Source of the DNA: Shigella phage ESh27
Sequence record: ON528737
Length of the DNA: 64,000 nt
Direction: 5' to 3' (one strand)
Below, piece by piece: positions 205 to 38,795 of the stretch. Below the pieces are notes generated by a model. That model had not been told where the DNA came from, ran no database searches, and saw only the letters and a program-made list of their open reading frames with translations. Numbering within the stretch: position 1 is the stretch's first letter; the number at the start of each line of letters is the position of its first letter. A program made the translations under genes and the position numbers.

Positions 205-440
205 TTTCTAGAAAAACTTTTAACCACCAACTTAATGAAGAGATTTTGACTATAAAACTGAACACTAACGAACAAATTCTTAAAAAGGCCCTGATGGGCC
301 TGTTTGAAACTAAAGCGGCTAAAGTGATTAAAGAACCTGTTCAACTAGAATATTATGCTGATGCATTTCTTCATAGTGTTCTTGGAAGTATCGATGCTGA
401 AGCTTTACGTTATATCAACATTGTCAAGAAATTCAAATAA
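201..440 (+). CDS. hypothetical protein
   Basis: 79 aa ORF, same strand as neighbours, 4-nt overlap with upstream ORF. Confidence 0.4.
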   Translation: MISRKTFNHQLNEEILTIKLNTNEQILKKALMGLFETKAAKVIKEPVQLEYYADAFLHSVLGSIDAEALRYINIVKKFK

Positions 441-482
441 GCTTTACGAATTGAGTATATAATAAATTGTATTGAGGTAAAC

Positions 483-1199
483 ATGGGAAAACATAACACA
501 ATGAAATATATCAAAGCCGCAGATTTTCAAACCGCATTTAAAGCAGTCAATCGTGAAATTTTAGAAAACCCGGAATTCGTAACTGATTCTCGTATTGGAC
601 GTTGTAATGAAATTGGGTCTATGACCGTAGTTGTTGACACTCCATCATCATTCAAAATGACCGACCCACGTATTAATCGCATCTCTTATGAATATGCCGA
701 AGACTTCTGGAAGTTTATGATTTCTGGTGGTACCAACGCAGAAGAAGCGTTTAAGGCATATCCTAATGTCGCTAAATTTATTTCTAAACCAAAATCAGAT
801 GTTTTGCCGGCGAACTTCAACACTTTCTATGGTCCTCGCATTGCGGCCCAATTACCAGCTCTTCTCAAAGAACTTAAAGAGAAGCCTAACTCTCGAAGAG
901 TTGTGTTCCAAATTCTAGAAAGTTCTGATCAGGCTTTGCTTGATTCAGACGAAACACTTGAATATCCATGTACTGACTCAGTGACTTATTATATTCGTGA
1001 TGGTAAGCTTTATACACACTGTCATATGCGTTCTCAGAACTGTGCTGTTGTTATGCAGTTGGATTTTTATCTCCAAGGAAAATTACTTCATTATATCGCT
1101 AACGAATGTGGTGTAGAAGTTGGTGATTATACTCATACCATGGTAAGTGCCCATGTGTTTGAACGTGATTTTGATTATGTTAAAGGATTCCTTGACTAA
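483..1199 (+). CDS. 42: dCMP hydroxymethylase (gp42-like, thymidylate-synthase fold)
   Basis: 238 aa; TS-family core pattern incl. candidate catalytic Cys in EYPCTD and DGKL/RSQN block; syntenic with T4 gene 42; a separate bona fide td is at 49191. Confidence 0.8.
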   Translation: MGKHNTMKYIKAADFQTAFKAVNREILENPEFVTDSRIGRCNEIGSMTVVVDTPSSFKMTDPRINRISYEYAEDFWKFMISGGTNAEEAFKAYPNVAKFISKPKSDVLPANFNTFYGPRIAAQLPALLKELKEKPNSRRVVFQILESSDQALLDSDETLEYPCTDSVTYYIRDGKLYTHCHMRSQNCAVVMQLDFYLQGKLLHYIANECGVEVGDYTHTMVSAHVFERDFDYVKGFLD

Positions 1200-9417: not shown

Positions 9418-10440
9418 ATGGCTGAATGGATAGATAATGAATTTGCTTATCGTGCGTTTTCTCACCTCCCTCGTTTTAGACAAATCAATAATTCAAGCAC
9501 ATTTAAATTAACATTTCGTTGTCCAGTTTGTGGCGACTCTCAGACAGATGCAATGAAAGCTCGCGGATGGTATTATGGCGGTACTCCAGGTAATGTGCAT
9601 TGCTATAACTGCCAATATCATAATACGATTTCCGGATACTTAAAAGAGTATGATGAAGAGCTTTATCGCGAATATCTAATGGAAGTACGTAAAGAAAAAG
9701 CTAGAATGGAACCAAAGATTGAAAAGGTTCCTGAACATAAACCAGAACCGGAGAAAAAGACTATAAATTCTTTGCCGTCTTGTTCTCGTCTGGACAAGTT
9801 GCCTGAAGAGCATCCTATTGTGAAATATGTTAAGTCTCGTTGTATTCCTAAAGAATCGTGGAACAGATTATGGTTCACATTAGAATGGCCTAAATTGGTT
9901 AACAAGATTCAACCTGGTACGTATAAGAAAGAGATTCCTGAACCGCGTTTAGTGATACCTATTTTTAATAAAGACGGGAAGGCTGAGTCATTTCAAGGAC
10001 GTGCACTTCGCAAAGATGCTCCTCAAAAATATATCACTATTAAAGCTTTTGAATCTGCAACAAAAATTTATGGTGTTGAACGTGTTAAGGAAGGAGACGT
10101 CTGGGTAATGGAAGGCCCTATTGATAGTTTATTCATACCCAATGCAATCGCTATTACAGGCGGCTCAATAGATTTAGATGTGGTACCATTTAAAGAACGT
10201 CGGGTATGGGTAATGGATAATGAACCTAGGCATCCGGATACTATAGCTCGTATGAAGCGATTAGTAGATGCAGGCGAACGTGTTATGTTCTGGGATAGAG
10301 CTCCATGGAGATCAAAGGATGTGAATGATATGGTAATGAAAGAAAATGCAACACCACAAGAAATTTTAGAATATATGAAACAGAATATTTCAAGTGGGTT
10401 GCATGCTAAAATGAGATTATCTCGTTATTCGAAGATTTAA
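9418..10440 (+). CDS. 61: gp61 DNA primase
   Basis: 340 aa; N-terminal zinc ribbon CPVCGDS...CYNCQYH, TOPRIM-type core; T4 synteny. Confidence 0.9.
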   Translation: MAEWIDNEFAYRAFSHLPRFRQINNSSTFKLTFRCPVCGDSQTDAMKARGWYYGGTPGNVHCYNCQYHNTISGYLKEYDEELYREYLMEVRKEKARMEPKIEKVPEHKPEPEKKTINSLPSCSRLDKLPEEHPIVKYVKSRCIPKESWNRLWFTLEWPKLVNKIQPGTYKKEIPEPRLVIPIFNKDGKAESFQGRALRKDAPQKYITIKAFESATKIYGVERVKEGDVWVMEGPIDSLFIPNAIAITGGSIDLDVVPFKERRVWVMDNEPRHPDTIARMKRLVDAGERVMFWDRAPWRSKDVNDMVMKENATPQEILEYMKQNISSGLHAKMRLSRYSKI

Positions 10441-10634
10441 ACAAGCCCTATAATAGCAAAGGCCAAATCAACTACAGTATCCAACGGAACAGAAGGAACT
10501 ATAACACCATTAGCAACTAACACCGGTGCAATCCCGAAGTTCCATGAAATAATGCCACCTACAACTATTGCAGCGATAGCAGTTTTCTTTTTATTGCCTT
10601 TAATAGCGTTGATTAACGATGGAAGTTTAAACAT
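10437..10634 (-). CDS. small membrane protein (antisense to early block)
   Basis: 65 aa, hydrophobic; strong SD AAGGAG 7 nt upstream of ATG on minus strand; convergent with gene 61. Confidence 0.5.
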   Translation of the reverse strand: MFKLPSLINAIKGNKKKTAIAAIVVGGIISWNFGIAPVLVANGVIVPSVPLDTVVDLAFAIIGLV

Positions 10635-10723
10635 AATATCTCCTTAGTTACCTTATTATTTATTACGCTTTATAAAATTAATGTTAGAATTAACTCTCTT
10701 ATACTGAATTGAAAGGAAAAATA

Positions 10724-11245
10724 ATGGCACACTTTAACGAATGTTCACAACTTATTTCTGGTGTTGATAAAGCAGAAGAAGCTTATTTTAATGCTCTGAT
10801 TCACGAAGATAAAGACCCACTGCAGGTAATGCTTGATATGCAGAAATCTTTACAGGTTCGTCTGGCGAATGACAAGCCTGAACATAACAAACATCCTGAT
10901 GAATTGGCCACTGCTGGCGATGTTGTTGATTGGCTGCGTAATCAGAAAGATTATATTGATGATGAATTCCGTGAACTGCTGACTTCACTTGGTGGTATGA
11001 GCAATGGTGAAAAAGCTGCCAGCAGTGTATGGAAGCCTTGGAAAGCACAACATGCTGAATTCCGTAATCGTCGTATTGATGAGTTGTCTCCTGAAGACCA
11101 GCTCGAAATTAAATTTGAGATGATTGATATCCTGCACTTTGTTCTGAACATGTTCCATGGCCTTGGACTGACTGCAGAAGAAATCTTTAAACTGTATTAC
11201 CTGAAAAACGCCGAGAACTTTGCTCGTCAGGACCGAGGTTATTAA
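10724..11245 (+). CDS. 56: gp56 dCTPase / dCTP pyrophosphatase (MazG-like)
   Basis: 173 aa from ATG 10724 (track start 10709 is TTG); N-terminus MAHFNEC; T4 synteny. Confidence 0.8.
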   Translation: MAHFNECSQLISGVDKAEEAYFNALIHEDKDPLQVMLDMQKSLQVRLANDKPEHNKHPDELATAGDVVDWLRNQKDYIDDEFRELLTSLGGMSNGEKAASSVWKPWKAQHAEFRNRRIDELSPEDQLEIKFEMIDILHFVLNMFHGLGLTAEEIFKLYYLKNAENFARQDRGY

Positions 11246-11526
11246 TGTCTCGTTTAAATAAACGTCAGCTTAAGAAAGCTCGTAAGAAGCATATTAATGC
11301 TATAATTGAAAACGCTAATGTTGAAATCTTTGTAGAACTCTTAGCCAATCAACTAAAAAATTTATCTAAACAAGAAATTGATATGAATACTGAAAATGCT
11401 AAAAATGTAATCGAAACTCATAATGTTTTTGCTCAAGCTACAGCCGAATACATTGCTAATCCTACTGCTGAAAATCTAGCTAAAATGACTGAAGCCAATA
11501 AAGCAGTCCAAGCTGCTAAATTGTAA
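11245..11526 (+). CDS. hypothetical protein
   Basis: 93 aa; ATG overlaps gene 56 stop. Confidence 0.45.
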   Translation: MSRLNKRQLKKARKKHINAIIENANVEIFVELLANQLKNLSKQEIDMNTENAKNVIETHNVFAQATAEYIANPTAENLAKMTEANKAVQAAKL

Positions 11527-11528
11527 GT

Positions 11529-11536
11529 TATAAATA
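11529..11536 (+). promoter_or_regulatory. late promoter (TATAAATA) for soc
   Basis: Exact TATAAATA about 30 nt upstream of soc ATG. Confidence 0.65.
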
Positions 11537-11567: not shown

Positions 11568-11804
11568 ATGGGTGGTTTCGTTAATATCAAAACCTTCACG
11601 CATCCAGCTGGTGAAGGTAAAGAAGTTAAAGGTATGGAAGTTTCTGTTCCGTTTGAGATTTATTCAAACGAACATCGGATTGCAGATTCTCATTACCAAA
11701 TCTTTCCATCAGAAAAGGCAGCTTATTCTGATGTCGTTTCTGATGCAGCAACTTGGAAAACTAAGAACGCCGCAATGTTTACCCCTACACCAGTAAGCGG
11801 TTAA
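11568..11804 (+). CDS. soc: Soc small outer capsid protein
   Basis: 78 aa; GFVNIKTF...HYQIFPSEKAAYS resembles T4 Soc; preceded by TATAAATA late promoter, followed by terminator. Confidence 0.8.
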   Translation: MGGFVNIKTFTHPAGEGKEVKGMEVSVPFEIYSNEHRIADSHYQIFPSEKAAYSDVVSDAATWKTKNAAMFTPTPVSG

Positions 11805-22710: not shown

Positions 22711-23811
22711 ATGAAAGTTATGTTTATCCCATCTCGCGCAGTCCCGTTTAACCCAGAACGTGTACAAGGTGGTCTTGAAGCAGTACATTTAAATGTGTTG
22801 AAATATCTTGTGTCCATCGGTGCTGATATTGATTATATCGGCTTTGATAATGACACGTTTGGTGACTGGAAAGTTACACACCATCCTGTTGGTCATCTGA
22901 CTAAATTCAGTCTAGGTATGAGTTATACTATGGCTCGTAAGATTGTTGAACTAGCCGGCATTAATGAGTACGATTTCGTTGTTACAATGGAACCGACCAA
23001 ACTAACCGTTCAGGCAATTAAAGACGCAGGTCTCTCTAAAGTTCATAAGAATTTTATGGCAACACCATTTGAACCGGTATCTCGTGGCATTGTTCAAATT
23101 TGGGACCAGACTATTCAAATTCATAAGAATGGTGGTAAGAGTTATGCTCCTACTAAAGCCTTCCGTGAATTTGAACGCAAATATTGTTATATGACTTCAG
23201 GACTGACTGACAAAATTGATTATGATTATTGGCGAGCAAATCCGTTGTTTGAAGCCGAAGATTATCCGGTTATTTGTTTGACTGAAAAACCGGAAGTTCT
23301 CCCAGCAACTGATTTGATTATTAGTGCTCAACGTTATGACACTAAGATGCGTCGTACTGATGTTGCTCTTGAAGCGATTAAAGCATTAGGCGAAAATGGT
23401 ATTGGTTATTGTCCAAGCAAATGGGCACCACCAGCTAAGTATCCTGTTATTATTGATGCTCCACACAGTGAAATCATGGAACGTCTTAAAACAGCTAAAG
23501 CACTTATTAATACGTGTCCTGACACGGGTACGGTAGAGAATAGTTCTATTGAAGCCATCTCTAAAGGTGTCCCTGTAATTCAGTTAGTTTTTAAGGATTA
23601 TCCGCATGCGACATTCGAATATGACCCAGATACTGTGCGTGTAGAAATTGATTCCTCTACTCCTAAGAAAGAAGTAGTTGCGCTTTACACAAAAGCTGTA
23701 TTAGAATTCACTGACACGTACGAAGCTCGAGTTAAACGTGCTGAAGCAGTATGGAAGAAGTATAACCGAGATGCAGTTGTTGCAATGTGGGATAAAATCT
23801 TCACAGCGTAA
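22711..23811 (+). CDS. putative GT-B fold glycosyltransferase (candidate DNA sugar transferase)
   Basis: 366 aa; C-terminal TGTVENSSIEAISKGVPVI resembles the GT1/GT4 E-x7-E donor-binding region; sits between 39 and rIIA. Confidence 0.55.
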   Translation: MKVMFIPSRAVPFNPERVQGGLEAVHLNVLKYLVSIGADIDYIGFDNDTFGDWKVTHHPVGHLTKFSLGMSYTMARKIVELAGINEYDFVVTMEPTKLTVQAIKDAGLSKVHKNFMATPFEPVSRGIVQIWDQTIQIHKNGGKSYAPTKAFREFERKYCYMTSGLTDKIDYDYWRANPLFEAEDYPVICLTEKPEVLPATDLIISAQRYDTKMRRTDVALEAIKALGENGIGYCPSKWAPPAKYPVIIDAPHSEIMERLKTAKALINTCPDTGTVENSSIEAISKGVPVIQLVFKDYPHATFEYDPDTVRVEIDSSTPKKEVVALYTKAVLEFTDTYEARVKRAEAVWKKYNRDAVVAMWDKIFTA

Positions 23812-26339: not shown

Positions 26340-27275
26340 ATGTACAATATCAAATGCTTGTCCCAAGAAGAACAGTTAGAAGCTTACGGCCTGGTTGAAT
26401 CAGGCAAATGGACTCGTAAAGAAATTGCCGATTACTTCGACATTTCAACAGATACTCTTCGTAAGATTGTTAAGAATTTTAAAGCTGAAGAGAAAGCAGC
26501 TGAATTTGAAGACGAAGAACAGATCCCAGAAAATGATGAACCTATTATCGGCGGACATCGTCCAGAAATCGTATGGAACGCGTCATCTAAATTTATTTCA
26601 ATCATTGAAGGACGCGTAGCATACAATGCGACCCCATCAAGTCATGCAAATTTTGAAGAAATTAAAACTAATCTGGTCGCAGGAAACCTTAGTAAAGCTG
26701 TTGAACTTATTAACGTCAAGAAAGCTATTACTAAGTTTGTTGACGGTAATGTTACTATTGAAGGTGGTAGTTTATTTTATCAAGGTATAGAAATTCGTTC
26801 AGGTCTGGTTAATCGTATTATTGATTCCATGGAAAAAGGCGAAGACTTTAAATTCTATCTGCCGTTCCTTGAAAACCTGTTAGAAAACCCGAGCGAAAAA
26901 GCTGTACAACGTTTATTCGACTTCTTGGTTGCAAATGATATTGAAATCACTGAAGATGGGCATTTCTACGCGTGGAAAGTAGTTCGTAAAGATTATTTAG
27001 ATTGCTATAGCGGTACATTTGATAACTCCCCAGGTAAAGTTGTTTCAATGCCTCGTACTCGTGTTAACGATGATGATACACAAACCTGCTCCCGTGGTCT
27101 ACATGTTTGCGCTAAATCATATATTCGTTACTTTGGTTCTAGCTCAGATAAAGTTGTTAAGGTTAAAGTTCATCCGCGCGATGTTGTATCTATCCCGGTT
27201 GACTACGGTGATGCTAAGATGCGTACTTGTCGTTATGAAGTAATTTCAGACGTTACTGAATTATTTGCAGAATAA
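26340..27275 (+). CDS. rIIB: rIIB protein
   Basis: 311 aa; N-terminus MYNIKCL and block GGSLFYQ...LENLLENPS...HVCAKSY; terminator follows. Confidence 0.85.
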   Translation: MYNIKCLSQEEQLEAYGLVESGKWTRKEIADYFDISTDTLRKIVKNFKAEEKAAEFEDEEQIPENDEPIIGGHRPEIVWNASSKFISIIEGRVAYNATPSSHANFEEIKTNLVAGNLSKAVELINVKKAITKFVDGNVTIEGGSLFYQGIEIRSGLVNRIIDSMEKGEDFKFYLPFLENLLENPSEKAVQRLFDFLVANDIEITEDGHFYAWKVVRKDYLDCYSGTFDNSPGKVVSMPRTRVNDDDTQTCSRGLHVCAKSYIRYFGSSSDKVVKVKVHPRDVVSIPVDYGDAKMRTCRYEVISDVTELFAE

Positions 27276-34745: not shown

Positions 34746-35525
34746 TTAAATCCAGGAACCATAGATCGTGCCTGTTGCACCCCATGACGGTGAACTTCCG
34801 AATACTGCTCTGCCAGGAGCACCGCCACCAGATCTAGATAAGTGATTACCCCATCCATCTCCGCCCCGACCTCCAGCATCGCCGCCATTGCCTCCGCCGA
34901 ATTGGGAAGTGTAACCGGCGCCGCCCGGGGCGTCATAACTAGCATTACCACCCGGCCAATTAACACCACCGCCACCGAGACCAAATGGTCTGCCACCGCC
35001 ACCACCAGCTGTAGCATTTGGCGCCCAGCTATTCTGTAATGACACTGCACCACCACCGCCACCGCCTGATGCAATAACGCCATAGTTCCAAATACGAAGT
35101 CTTCCGCCGATATCATTTTGGATTACATCGCCGCCATTTGTGCCTGGGTTTCCGTTTACAGTACCGTTACCACCTCGTCCCCACATATGAACACCGCCGT
35201 GAATATTCAAAGTGACATATTCGTTAGGAGTATCACCATACATGAAGAATAAAGGAACGTCTTTAGAATATGATACCAAATTTCCGGTGATATTAAACAC
35301 TATAGGCGCACTACCTGCCTCAAAACATCTATCTCGGAACCATTGACCATTGAAGTTATGGTCTGCTCCAAGTGTGTGAATAATTTCTCTTGAGCGACCT
35401 GCAAATTGACTCATCCAGCAAGGAACACCCAATCTTAATTGACCAGCTGCTTGACTCATCCAGCGCTGACCCGTTTCATTTACGGCTGAACTTCCAATCC
35501 AGCCAGGAACTCCAACTACTGCCAT
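34746..35525 (-). CDS. 38: gp38 tail-fibre tip adhesin (T2-type, glycine-rich motifs)
   Basis: 259 aa; conserved N-terminus [13 protein letters not shown]; C-terminal half with poly-Gly runs separated by short variable segments. Confidence 0.85.
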
Positions 35526-35561
35526 AATTTATACTCCAAAGGGGGCATTTCCCCCTTGTTG

Positions 35562-38500
35562 TTAGAATTTAAAATATTTACTAATTTTGCGAGCAATTTT
35601 AGTAAAGAGAGGCGTTTTCAATTCTTTAATTTCTTCGCTCATTTCCTGAATGGCCTTAATTAAAAGCGCGTTCACTGCGGAGTTTGAAATTGTTAAAATT
35701 TCTTCTGGGTTATCCTGAGATCCGACACTAGAAGTGCTAACAGCTTCCGGTAATACTTCTTGCAAATCCTGTGCGATAATACCAATCTCATGGCCGATAA
35801 CTTCGCGGTCAGAAAGAGATTTAACTTTATCATAGGTTTTAACTTTGAGTTTATTTACCTTATCCACCGCATTCTCTTCGTAGTCTTCGACATTAATTTT
35901 CAGACGACGGTCAGAACGAATATAAACGTCGTTACAATATACAGCAGCACCAGCAGTAAAATCACCGTTAGATGCAAATGCATAATCACTCCCACCCACA
36001 TGCAATACAACATGAGGATTACCACCGCCAGCATGAACACCCATCGCCGCAAGGTGCTGTTCGCCCCAATGAGTAGCTTTCCAAATGTTATATGCTTGAT
36101 TTCGTGAGTCCTGACAGTCTACCAACAATCCAGCCGGACGGTCTCGCCAGTCTACCCATGCACCACCGGAAATATTACCACGGATAAGAGCGTATTCACT
36201 ATTATATGGAACACGCTCTCCCGCTAGAATCATTGCACCCTGGAAGTGATGACTAAATGAACCACCATGATTATTGTGAATATGTAAAATACCCTCATCT
36301 GTAGCCCAGATAACAGCCTTTTCTGCATCGCTATCATCTCTAAACCAGATATGTCGTGCACCAGTTGAGTTTTTGATGGTTATTCCGTTAGGTCCATGCA
36401 CGGTCAAAGCACCAGCAACATCAAACATCAAACTGTTATCTGTCCTGCGTTCAGCATAGAAGTGATAACCTTTTGAATCGCCGACTTCCAATACTGCCGC
36501 GCGACCAACTTCTGAATTTCCCCAATTGTTGATAGAGAATCGTTCAGAGCTATTATTCATCTGATTTAGGTATAATGTACCATCAGTGAATGTTTCGCCA
36601 AAGAAACGAGTTTTAATTGCACCTGTCGCTAAAGTACGTTCAGTGGAAAAATGAGCGCCTTGACTATCTTCTAACTGGATGATGTTATCACGACCATTAT
36701 TACTATCACCCCAATGGTTAAATTTAAAATAATCTCGTGATCCTAAACGTCCCGGGTCAAAAGTCATCACGCCTTTCATGTTAATATCACCGCTGACCAG
36801 AACGTTATCTGGGAAGTTAACAGTACCGTCTTGATTAAAACGAGACGCATGGCCTTGTGAACCATCTTCTTTCAGATGATGAATAACGAATGTACCTGAT
36901 TCAATTTCGGTACCTAAAGACCAAACGGATTTACCGTTTAAAAACTTCTGTTTAACAATAGGATAATATTTGCTTACAGCGTCATCATCGATTTCCTGGA
37001 AAATAGGAGCCGCTTGAACATATTGAATGTCATAACCGCCGGCACCCGCTCCATGACCAACAAATTTAATATAGCCATTCGCAGCAAACGTATTGTAACT
37101 TGATTGTAAATCTGGAATAGTAACTTTACCGGTATCTAAAGCCATACTAAACGGGCGAAGTGGACCGATATCACCATGTTTACCTTCACCATAAGCAGTT
37201 GGAATAATATGAAGACTGCCTTCTGAACGTCTAAAAATGGCTCCATAATCTGCGTTCCAAATACGAAGAGCATTCACTGCTCCAGATGAAATTTCACCTG
37301 TTGTGTGAACTCCTCTATCTCCAGCAGTAACACCAGATGATTCAAATGAACCATTAACGTTCATTTCTACTTCGCCAGTAGTAAGTCTTTGAATATAGCT
37401 CATCCAGCTAGTTGCATCAGAAATTTCCATAATGTTTTTACGGATACCTCCGCTTGGATCAACAAACGTATTACCCCAAACTTTAATATCCATATTATCA
37501 ACCGAGCTGTATCCTGTTGTGTTGCCTCTAAACATTAGTGTAGAAGAATTATTTCTACCATCTATATTAACAGAACCACCAATAACGTCAATATTACCAG
37601 GAGTAACTAACAAACCGCCATGAGTATTAATGTTTGTGGTACCCTTGCCGCGGAAATAATGATGATAGTTACCGCCTTGATAATATCCTAAAAGAGTTTG
37701 ACCATCGCCGTATGCGTTATTATCATGGTAAGTAACAACAGTGGCCAAAGCATAGTTTTCTGTCGGTGGCGTTGTCATAAGAAGCCCATCTGGAGAATAA
37801 CCCATAACCATTTTTCTAAGGCTTTGTGTTTCCGCAGGACCGTAAATGAAAGTTTTTGTTCCGTTGTTTACTGTATGGAAATATCCATCCTGATGCCACT
37901 TAAATCCGGTATCATTATCACCAAGAACAATTGAGGCCGTTCCTAATTCAGAATATCCTTTTGGACCACCTGGAAGACCTACAGCGATAGAATGACCGGC
38001 TTTCAATCCACCGGACCAGGTAAACGACCAAAGATAAGTGTCTAAGCCATCTCCGGAATACCAGGTTATTCCGTCATTAACATTAACTTCGTGGAAAATA
38101 CCTGCTCCTACAGCATTTCGCATAACACGGAGGTGGTTAATAGCCGTTTCGCTTTCTGCCAATGGAGTGTTATTTGATAATGAATAGATGTCATAATCGC
38201 CTGTCTTCTTCCCATTTGTAATAACTTTGTCGGTCAGAATTTGTGGAGACGAAATAGATTTCCATGCTGATACTTCAGGTGAAGTAAATAGTCCACTGCC
38301 CGAAAATGCATAGGTGCTTTCATCACCAGCGGCGTAGTCTTGAACCCTGATATTAAGTACTTGTGTAGTTAAACCATCATTAGCCGGGGCATAAATGATT
38401 CCACGTTCGCGACTATTGTTATCGAAAAAACGAACATGTGCTGTACCTGAACTTTTTGTAATAAGTTCACCGCCTTCAGTCATAATCTGCCCAGCGGCAA

Positions 38501-38795
38501 TAATATCACGAGTTACTCGAGCAATACCAGTTAAATTAAAATTACCTGTCTGAGTGAAGACACCATTTAAAGTATAATCGCCAGTTTGGTTATAATTACC
38601 TGTATGAATAACATTCCCGTCAATACTACCGCCTTTAGCAAAACCCAGATCAATAATATTTCCTTGGTCATCTTTAGTAAAAAGTACACGGTCTTTTAAG
38701 TTTATAGCCAATTCACCTTCGGCTAATACTGAAGCGGCAGGACGTGCTCCTGCAGTTTTGCTTCTTTTAAATTGTATTTGTTTTAAAGTAGCCAT
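35562..38795 (-). CDS. 37: gp37 long tail fibre distal subunit
   Basis: 1077 aa; N-terminus MATLKQIQFKRSK; C-terminal chaperone-like tail. Confidence 0.9.
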   Translation of the reverse strand: MATLKQIQFKRSKTAGARPAASVLAEGELAINLKDRVLFTKDDQGNIIDLGFAKGGSIDGNVIHTGNYNQTGDYTLNGVFTQTGNFNLTGIARVTRDIIAAGQIMTEGGELITKSSGTAHVRFFDNNSRERGIIYAPANDGLTTQVLNIRVQDYAAGDESTYAFSGSGLFTSPEVSAWKSISSPQILTDKVITNGKKTGDYDIYSLSNNTPLAESETAINHLRVMRNAVGAGIFHEVNVNDGITWYSGDGLDTYLWSFTWSGGLKAGHSIAVGLPGGPKGYSELGTASIVLGDNDTGFKWHQDGYFHTVNNGTKTFIYGPAETQSLRKMVMGYSPDGLLMTTPPTENYALATVVTYHDNNAYGDGQTLLGYYQGGNYHHYFRGKGTTNINTHGGLLVTPGNIDVIGGSVNIDGRNNSSTLMFRGNTTGYSSVDNMDIKVWGNTFVDPSGGIRKNIMEISDATSWMSYIQRLTTGEVEMNVNGSFESSGVTAGDRGVHTTGEISSGAVNALRIWNADYGAIFRRSEGSLHIIPTAYGEGKHGDIGPLRPFSMALDTGKVTIPDLQSSYNTFAANGYIKFVGHGAGAGGYDIQYVQAAPIFQEIDDDAVSKYYPIVKQKFLNGKSVWSLGTEIESGTFVIHHLKEDGSQGHASRFNQDGTVNFPDNVLVSGDINMKGVMTFDPGRLGSRDYFKFNHWGDSNNGRDNIIQLEDSQGAHFSTERTLATGAIKTRFFGETFTDGTLYLNQMNNSSERFSINNWGNSEVGRAAVLEVGDSKGYHFYAERRTDNSLMFDVAGALTVHGPNGITIKNSTGARHIWFRDDSDAEKAVIWATDEGILHIHNNHGGSFSHHFQGAMILAGERVPYNSEYALIRGNISGGAWVDWRDRPAGLLVDCQDSRNQAYNIWKATHWGEQHLAAMGVHAGGGNPHVVLHVGGSDYAFASNGDFTAGAAVYCNDVYIRSDRRLKINVEDYEENAVDKVNKLKVKTYDKVKSLSDREVIGHEIGIIAQDLQEVLPEAVSTSSVGSQDNPEEILTISNSAVNALLIKAIQEMSEEIKELKTPLFTKIARKISKYFKF

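Follow-up and report, generated by a model that had tools for sequence, protein, structure and literature searches.

The interval between genes 61 and 56 in the DNA examined here holds a single gene, a hydrophobic minus-strand open reading frame (ORF) of 65 amino acids, and dam is absent from it. We judge this ORF, with a probability of about 0.8, to be a real gene that is orthologous to T4 dam.1 and lies antisense between 61 and 56 across the enterobacterial Tevenvirinae, here in a lineage that does not carry the accessory gene dam. The window, by which we mean the whole 64,000-nt stretch that was analysed, belongs to an RB69-like (Mosigvirus) T-even phage. It is collinear with RB69 (NC_004928) across 61,125 of its 64,000 nt at 90-97% identity, mapping to RB69 positions 26,695 descending to 1 and then 167,560 to 130,787, and its closest database matches are Mosigvirus phages with ~96-97% identity. 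The ORF is surrounded by replication and nucleotide genes. It converges with gene 61, and the stop codons of the two genes share the TTAA at 10437..10440. An earlier note on this DNA had described a minus-strand hydrophobic ORF of this length with a strong AAGGAG Shine-Dalgarno (SD) sequence, convergent with gene 61, and the description proved correct in every respect, with exact coordinates.

Table 1 Features of the 61-56 region and two DNA-modification-related ORFs, with their positions in the window.
Feature	Position	Strand	Remarks
Gene 42-like ORF	483..1199		Thymidylate-synthase fold
Gene 61, DNA primase	9418..10440	+	phrog_47, E 1e-101; 99% identical to RB69 gp61, 74% to T4 gp61
U-rich tail AUUUUCUUUC	10336..10345	-	Directly after the hairpin
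RNA hairpin	10346..10404	-	33 nt past the ORF stop, within the 3' end of gene 61
65-aa ORF	10437..10634	-	ATG start; ortholog of T4 dam.1, RB69ORF029w and phrog_2024; predicted small inner-membrane protein
Shine-Dalgarno AAGGAG	10640..10645 (CTCCTT on +)	-	5 nt before the ATG of the 65-aa ORF
AATAAATA, T4 late-promoter-like	10657..10664	-	22 nt before the ATG; putative promoter of the 65-aa ORF
Middle-promoter-like element of gene 56	10667..10690	+	MotA-box-like GCTTTA, 12-nt spacer, TAGAAT
Gene 56, dCTPase/dUTPase	10724..11245	+	phrog_173, E 6e-45; Pfam dUTPase_2; 99% identical to RB69 gp56
RB69 ORF003c homolog	22711..23811		Proposed arabinosyltransferase

The dam.1 family between genes 61 and 56

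The 65-aa protein matches the profile of phrog_2024 over its full length (residues 1-65 of 65, E 1.6e-26), and is 94% identical to RB69ORF029w (NP_861719) and 55% identical to T4 dam.1. The latter is annotated in the T4T record HM137666 (T4Tp032) as a gene of 66 aa; its strand is that of the window ORF, and its stop likewise overlaps that of gene 61 by 4 nt. In T4 the genes are ordered 61, dam.1 (antisense), dam and 56. Antisense orthologs between 61 and 56 were also found in the Tequatrovirus phages AR1 and slur07, in the Gaprivervirus phages VR20, CJ20 and VR25, in Moonvirus Merlin and in Klebsiella phage Roth80, and phrog_2024 was matched by all eight lineage representatives. Searching phage records by tblastn with the window protein returned 692 matching records, and 845 when a Gaprivervirus homolog served as the query. 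T4 dam.1, RB69ORF029w and the members of phrog_2024 share with the window ORF a length of 63-66 aa, the antisense orientation and a position that abuts the gene 61 stop. The window differs from T4 in the gene that follows dam.1, which is dam in T4 and gene 56 here; otherwise its ORF is another allele of the same gene.

Pairwise comparisons gave dN/dS values of 0.13-0.35 for the ORF, and substitutions are distributed over the three codon positions at about 30/12/41, position 2 varying least. In the family alignment nine residues (M1, K12, W31, N32, P37, G43, P47, L51 and G63) are invariant down to 27% identity, and all of the family residues for which the window ORF was tested (K12, W31-N32, P37, G43, P47, L51 and G63) are present in it. 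The family, window ORF included, can be described by the motif K..K-TM(WN[FY]..P)-[HNYQ]G..P..L[DE]. As judged by sequence comparison, the ORF is orthologous to dam.1, syntenic with it and under purifying selection.

When 1.8 billion representative proteins were searched exhaustively with HMMER, the dam.1 family yielded two clusters; by this measure it is restricted to these phages. The window protein had no match in sequence searches of Pfam, NCBIfam or the PDB. With its structural model as the query, Foldseek retrieved only the protein's own family from BFVD and one meaningless match from the PDB. A search of one literature library found no mention of dam.1, of ORF029w or of the protein accessions, and did not find a T4 ribosome-profiling paper. 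Public annotations already show both the gene family and the lack of dam.

Predicted membrane protein and its possible roles

The predicted protein has a GRAVY of 1.24; all five of its K/R residues lie before residue 18, and both of its acidic residues after residue 50. AlphaFold2 models helices at residues 4-13, 15-41 and 51-61 with a Gly/Pro turn between (mean pLDDT 77.6), and a transmembrane (TM) segment is predicted at ~18-41. RB69ORF029w has been predicted to have a TM segment at 21-41 and no signal peptide (PMC1524935 Additional File 2). The C-terminal helix is too polar for a confident second TM segment, its summed insertion cost being 5-9 kcal/mol. By the positive-inside rule the basic flank of a TM helix is cytoplasmic and, since the N-terminus is basic, we place it in the cytoplasm.

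The product of the ORF is most likely a late-transcribed small inner-membrane protein of roughly 7 kDa, as modelled here. Its basic amphipathic N-terminal helix, with the five K/R residues, would lie in the cytoplasm and would be followed by a single TM helix bearing the invariant Trp-Asn at mid-membrane; the Gly/Pro turn would then lead into a C-terminal helix, short and acidic, that lies on the periplasmic face or beyond it. Alternatively, the C-terminal segment could be a second, re-entrant membrane helix. Conserved Asn residues inside TM helices typically drive the helices to associate with one another, and given this behaviour the invariant Trp-Asn suggests that the TM helix associates with another. 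The protein probably works through oligomerisation or through binding to a second membrane protein. As a guess with low support, it may tune a late envelope function such as the timing or inhibition of lysis, superinfection exclusion or membrane-bound assembly.

The small T-even membrane proteins of the immunity or exclusion type (Imm, Sp, Ac and gp52.1) resemble the 65-aa protein in being short, hydrophobic and accessory, and belong to the same phages. However, their genes are early and lie on the early strand, whereas the 65-aa ORF lies on the late strand, and there is no sequence similarity.

A more far-reaching version of the preferred reading would make dam.1/phrog_2024 a real late gene, in T4 as well, that was missed in the reference T4 record. 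Through its Trp-Asn TM motif the 7-kDa product would act on a membrane partner from the host or the phage, with a measurable late envelope role (lysis timing or inhibition, exclusion or membrane-bound assembly), and late in infection the antisense transcript would in addition reduce the expression of gene 61 somewhat. Taken as a whole, we consider this combination rather unlikely.

Several properties of the protein would also fit a holin or another lysis-pore protein. Like phage holins (class II/III, T4 T) it is small, hydrophobic, membrane-embedded and probably expressed late, it has at least one predicted TM domain, and the invariant polar Asn of that domain would suit oligomerisation. Its BFVD match A0A482MZV5 (51% identical) is moreover named 'Holin' in UniProt. 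This name appears to be an unsupported automatic one, however, and searches of Pfam, NCBIfam and PHROGs matched no holin family. Compared with typical holins, the charges are reversed: the N-terminus is basic, and the hydrophobic C-terminus (...AFAIIGLV) has no charged tail. The gene is not part of a lysis cassette, as no lysis gene is adjacent to it; in RB69, e, t and pseT.2/.3 are found at other places. T-even phages, furthermore, already have the T holin under the control of RI/RIII. We therefore regard a pore-forming role in lysis as a doubtful explanation for the 65-aa gene.

Candidate signals upstream and downstream of the gene

An AGGAG sequence is present at the matching place upstream of the gene in all eight lineages compared, and it is extended to AAGGAG(G) in six of them. 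Farther upstream, AATAAATA matches the T4 late consensus TATAAATA (-13 to -6) at seven of eight positions, the variable -13 position being the one that is changed. At this position T4-like phages are reported to have A or T (Nolan et al., PMC1524935). The first base of the late-like motif differs from that of TATAAATA in every lineage, where it is A, G or C, while NATAAATA is found 12-22 nt before the ATG in seven of the eight lineages and ATTAAATA in Merlin. The intergenic sequence around this conserved motif is otherwise unconserved. The orientation of the ORF is that of the late genes (PMC1524935). No sigma-70-like promoter was found on its strand, and upstream of it the minus strand carries no further gene.

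The published list of 31 predicted RB69 late promoters does not include the site of ORF029w. Among RB69 sites, 5 of 15 with AATAAATA are on this list, as against 23 of 26 with TATAAATA, so that AATAAATA alone is a weak predictor. Because the site is missing from the published list, we have downgraded the late promoter of the 65-aa ORF to one that we infer.

On the opposite strand, the late-like motif is adjoined by the middle-promoter-like element of gene 56. This element is the counterpart of the predicted RB69 middle promoter Pm:16038, with a score of 21.6 (PMC1524935 Additional File 4), and its counterpart in AR1 consists of TTGCTTTA, an 11-nt spacer and TATAAT. In this arrangement the 65-aa ORF would be a small late transcription unit of its own, driven from a gp55-type AATAAATA placed back-to-back with the gene 56 middle promoter; the sequence signals lend moderate support to such a unit.

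Downstream of the ORF, an antisense transcript would extend into gene 61 at its 3' end, where it would end at, or be stabilised by, the RNA hairpin that lies within the gene 61 coding sequence. In the window this hairpin has a z-score of -3.46, and none of 200 shuffled sequences folded equally well; its loop is long (22 nt, with an additional internal loop). A hairpin occupies the corresponding spot in T4, AR1, slur07, VR20, VR25 and CJ20, and in Merlin as well, there with different nucleotides. Roth80 has no hairpin in gene 61 and carries instead a G+C-rich one in the short spacer between 61 and the ORF. The U-tail is poorer in T4 and Merlin. In every lineage the antisense strand gives a more stable hairpin than the gene 61 mRNA strand does (-22.8 vs -13.8 kcal/mol in VR25 and -20.6 vs -16.9 kcal/mol in T4), owing to G·U pairs.

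A consensus terminator scan found none at the locus, and RNAalifold gave no consensus structure for 13 sequences of the gene 61 3' end. Covariation in the hairpin was not significant, with two pairs changed on both sides and 26 of 500 shuffles reaching the observed score. A search of Rfam over 9800..11300 identified no family, its single match lying far below the threshold. On account of the strand asymmetry we have nevertheless retained the hairpin, tentatively, as a candidate structure for the 3' end or the termination of the antisense transcript, and a transcript that ends at or is stabilised by this antisense-favouring structure may be proposed with moderate support.

These features could also be read as signs that the RNA itself is the main product, a late antisense transcript that shuts down the primase and dCTPase messages through the gene 61 3' end and the 61-56 read-through mRNA, the peptide being secondary. 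The overlapping stop codons, which leave no terminator between the convergent genes, would suit such a role, as would the presence of the antisense-favouring hairpin within gene 61 in most lineages. Selection has however acted on the protein, as seen from the dN/dS values, from the nine residues that are invariant across homologs 27-55% identical and from the conserved SD sequence. Nor is the overlap with gene 61 conserved, since spacers of 19-204 nt separate the two genes in Roth80, CJ20 and VR20. An RNA as the principal product is for these reasons improbable, although the RNA could have a role of its own besides that of the protein.

Distribution of dam and the annotation of T4

T4 carries dam between 61 and 56, as the earlier note had stated, and the note was also right that the gene is absent from this interval here. 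T4 Dam is a DNA-(adenine-N6)-methyltransferase that acts on GATC (Pfam MethyltransfD12 class) and has only its map position in common with the 65-aa ORF; in T4 it is located between dam.1 and gene 56, and it is found neither in the window nor in RB69. A tblastn search with T4 Dam across the whole 64-kb window gave a best E of 1.5 and no homolog. The methyltransferase motif search that the note had proposed was carried out within the window and agreed with this result: among the long reading frames, [DNS]PP[YFWH] occurred once, as an isolated NPPW in a 159-codon frame without similarity to Dam or other methyltransferase context. The note had named, as what would refute it, a dam homolog at another place in the genome together with GATC-methylated virion DNA, and such a homolog was looked for in RB69. 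None was present across all 167,560 bp of that genome (the best tblastn match, over 48 residues, had E 0.15, against E 5e-175 for the T4 positive control), and none of the 275 annotated RB69 features is a methyltransferase.

The distribution of dam among related phages is patchy. T4-type Dam (≥90% identity) was found in 182 phage records, compared with 692-845 that carry the small ORF, or about a quarter. AR1 and slur07, which belong to T4's own genus Tequatrovirus, have no dam at the 61-56 locus, and the locus is also dam-less in Gaprivervirus, in Moonvirus and in a Klebsiella phage. Klebsiella, Enterobacter and Krischvirus-type phages encode more remote Dam homologs (46-60% identical) at loci other than this one. 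On this comparison of genomes, dam is an accessory gene of the T4/T2 subgroup, situated between dam.1 and gene 56 and missing from most relatives. It appears as an insertion or deletion beside dam.1, which stays the constant neighbour of gene 61.

GATC depletion was considered as a specific mark of phages lacking Dam and was rejected, as Dam-positive T4 is depleted too (observed/expected 0.37 in T4 vs 0.22-0.23 in the window and RB69).

The DNA of RB69 contains arabinosyl-hmC (Thomas et al. 2018, PMC6024577), and the window encodes a homolog of RB69 ORF003c, the gene 42-like ORF and gene 56. In the earlier note the lack of Dam was taken to fit a different strategy of DNA modification. Such a modification is indeed present in the lineage, but the loss of dam does not track it, as AR1 and slur07 illustrate. 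AR1, dam-less at the 61-56 locus, carries gene 42 and a glucosyltransferase. Since the dam-less phages include one that bears a glucosyltransferase, the arabinosyl-hmC of the RB69 lineage is unrelated to the loss of Dam.

The note had further stated that the antisense gene sits in this place instead of dam, and in its full form this reading would have the membrane gene replace dam in the dam slot as a reflection of a switch in DNA-modification strategy. The absence of Dam from the window agrees with it, and so do the modification of RB69-type phages with arabinosyl- rather than glucosyl-hmC (PMC6024577) and the ORF003c homolog in the window. It is refuted by T4 itself, since dam and the ortholog of the ORF stand side by side there, dam.1 being annotated in T4T. 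In addition, the dam-less order 61/ORF/56 recurs in AR1 and slur07 and in three further lineages, and the 65-aa membrane peptide shows no feature of a methyltransferase. We consider replacement to be very improbable.

The 65-aa ORF as a chance reading frame on the intergenic antisense strand, a notion to which the many ORFs of similar length in the A+T-rich window and the unannotated state of the region in reference T4 lend some initial appeal, can be dismissed as refuted, its length, frame, SD sequence and motif being conserved in at least five lineages and >690 genomes, under purifying selection.

Reference T4, NC_000866.4, lacks an annotation for dam.1 and has a 309-nt unannotated gap in its place. 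This gap probably explains why the earlier note took the antisense gene to stand "instead" of dam, and it also accounts for the listing of RB69ORF029w by Nolan et al. 2006 (PMC1524935) as one of the ORFs "novel" with respect to T4. A short gene that is found in >690 T-even-type genomes, with purifying selection, a promoter-like motif and a 3' hairpin, is missing from the reference T4 record. To omics work based on NC_000866, dam.1 is therefore invisible. For the biology of DNA modification the present result has little consequence, the absence of Dam being the common state in this phage group. dam.1, on the other hand, offers a cheap and well-defined target for knockout and expression work in the best-studied phage.

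Some copies of the family are disrupted or duplicated. In phage a48 the gene is frameshifted, or else the a48 record contains a sequencing error. VR25 carries a tandem paralog, and in VR20 a second copy has decayed to a pseudogene. Given the a48 frameshift (or record error) and the decayed second copy of VR20, some phages at least can do without the gene. Duplication and decay of the kind found in VR25 and VR20 are a frequent trait of accessory host-interaction genes.

GATC avoidance and DNA modification genes

Tetranucleotide counts over the whole window gave 47 GATC sites where 213 were expected, an observed/expected ratio (O/E) of 0.22. GATC, the target of the T4 adenine methyltransferase Dam, is the most strongly depleted tetranucleotide by a wide margin, the next lowest in the window having an O/E of 0.63. 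The whole RB69 genome, which encodes no Dam homolog, has a GATC O/E of 0.23. Since Dam-positive T4 is depleted too (O/E of 0.37 in the first 30 kb, positions 1-30000, of T4T), GATC avoidance is general among these phages rather than confined to the Dam-less lineage, and is only somewhat stronger there.

The window also encodes homologs of two RB69 genes, the gene 42-like ORF048c and ORF003c, the latter proposed to be the arabinosyltransferase for ara-hmC (PMC6024577). With both present, the ESh27 phage most likely makes arabinosyl-hmC DNA, as in RB69.

Features of the ESh27 window and of the dam.1 family in related phages
Feature	Position	Strand	Remark
ORF048c homolog, gene 42-like	483..1199	+	thymidylate-synthase fold, Pfam E 2e-15
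RNA hairpin	10346..10404	- (RNA)	within final codons of gene 61
93-aa ORF	11245..11526	+	overlaps gene 56 stop
Perfect TATAAATA	11529..11536	+	~30 nt upstream of soc
soc	11568..11804	+	early-gene strand
RB69 ORF003c homolog	22711..23811	+	counterpart of proposed arabinosyltransferase
Four other [TA]ATAAATA sites	34719, 38974, 39488, 44522	-	map to RB69 predicted late promoters
Class I DAHP synthase (AroG-like), 330 aa	59444..60436	+	Pfam PF00793, E 5e-75
Extra or decayed dam.1-family copies	VR25 607-807; VR20 2196-2405; a48 380-610		positions within stretches compared

Annotation, duplication and decay of dam.1

The T4 ortholog of the 65-aa ORF between genes 61 and 56, dam.1, is annotated in the T4T record (HM137666), unlike in the reference T4 genome, where a 309-nt gap separates gene 61 from dam (NC_000866.4, 16200-19200). 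dam.1 is thus invisible to any study resting on NC_000866.

Extra or decayed members of the family occur in several relatives. The Gaprivervirus VR25 encodes a second tandem paralog of 66 aa, gp032, which is situated between gene 61 and the dam.1 homolog and shares with the latter the motif K..K-LWN..P..G..LP. The second copy is a frameshifted pseudogene in VR20 and is partly deleted in CJ20, while in the Tequatrovirus a48 the sole copy is frameshifted, or the record contains a sequencing error.

The hairpin at the 3' end of gene 61 keeps its position across Mosig-, Tequatro-, Gapriver- and Moonvirus, and the antisense strand consistently gives a higher stability than the gene 61 mRNA. No significant covariation was found in this hairpin.

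Segments differing from RB69 and late-promoter motifs

The DAHP synthase gene just precedes dCMP deaminase and is part of a 1.1-kb stretch with no counterpart in RB69. It is found at ≥95% identity in 139 phage records, annotated as AroG or phospho-2-dehydro-3-deoxyheptonate aldolase. A 281-nt segment absent from RB69 contains the 93-aa ORF, which is named soc.2 in the annotation of some relatives and matches phrog_5782 ('virion structural protein') in its N-terminal half only (E 1e-14). The region 35440..36787 does not align to RB69 and falls within a 1077-aa ORF (35562..38795, minus strand); because this ORF is, by its position, the putative distal long tail fibre gene 37, the region is probably host-range variable.

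The T4-type late-promoter motif upstream of soc is the counterpart of the RB69 predicted late promoter Pl:15279. The RB69 promoters that match the four minus-strand sites are predicted upstream of tail-fibre genes and t.
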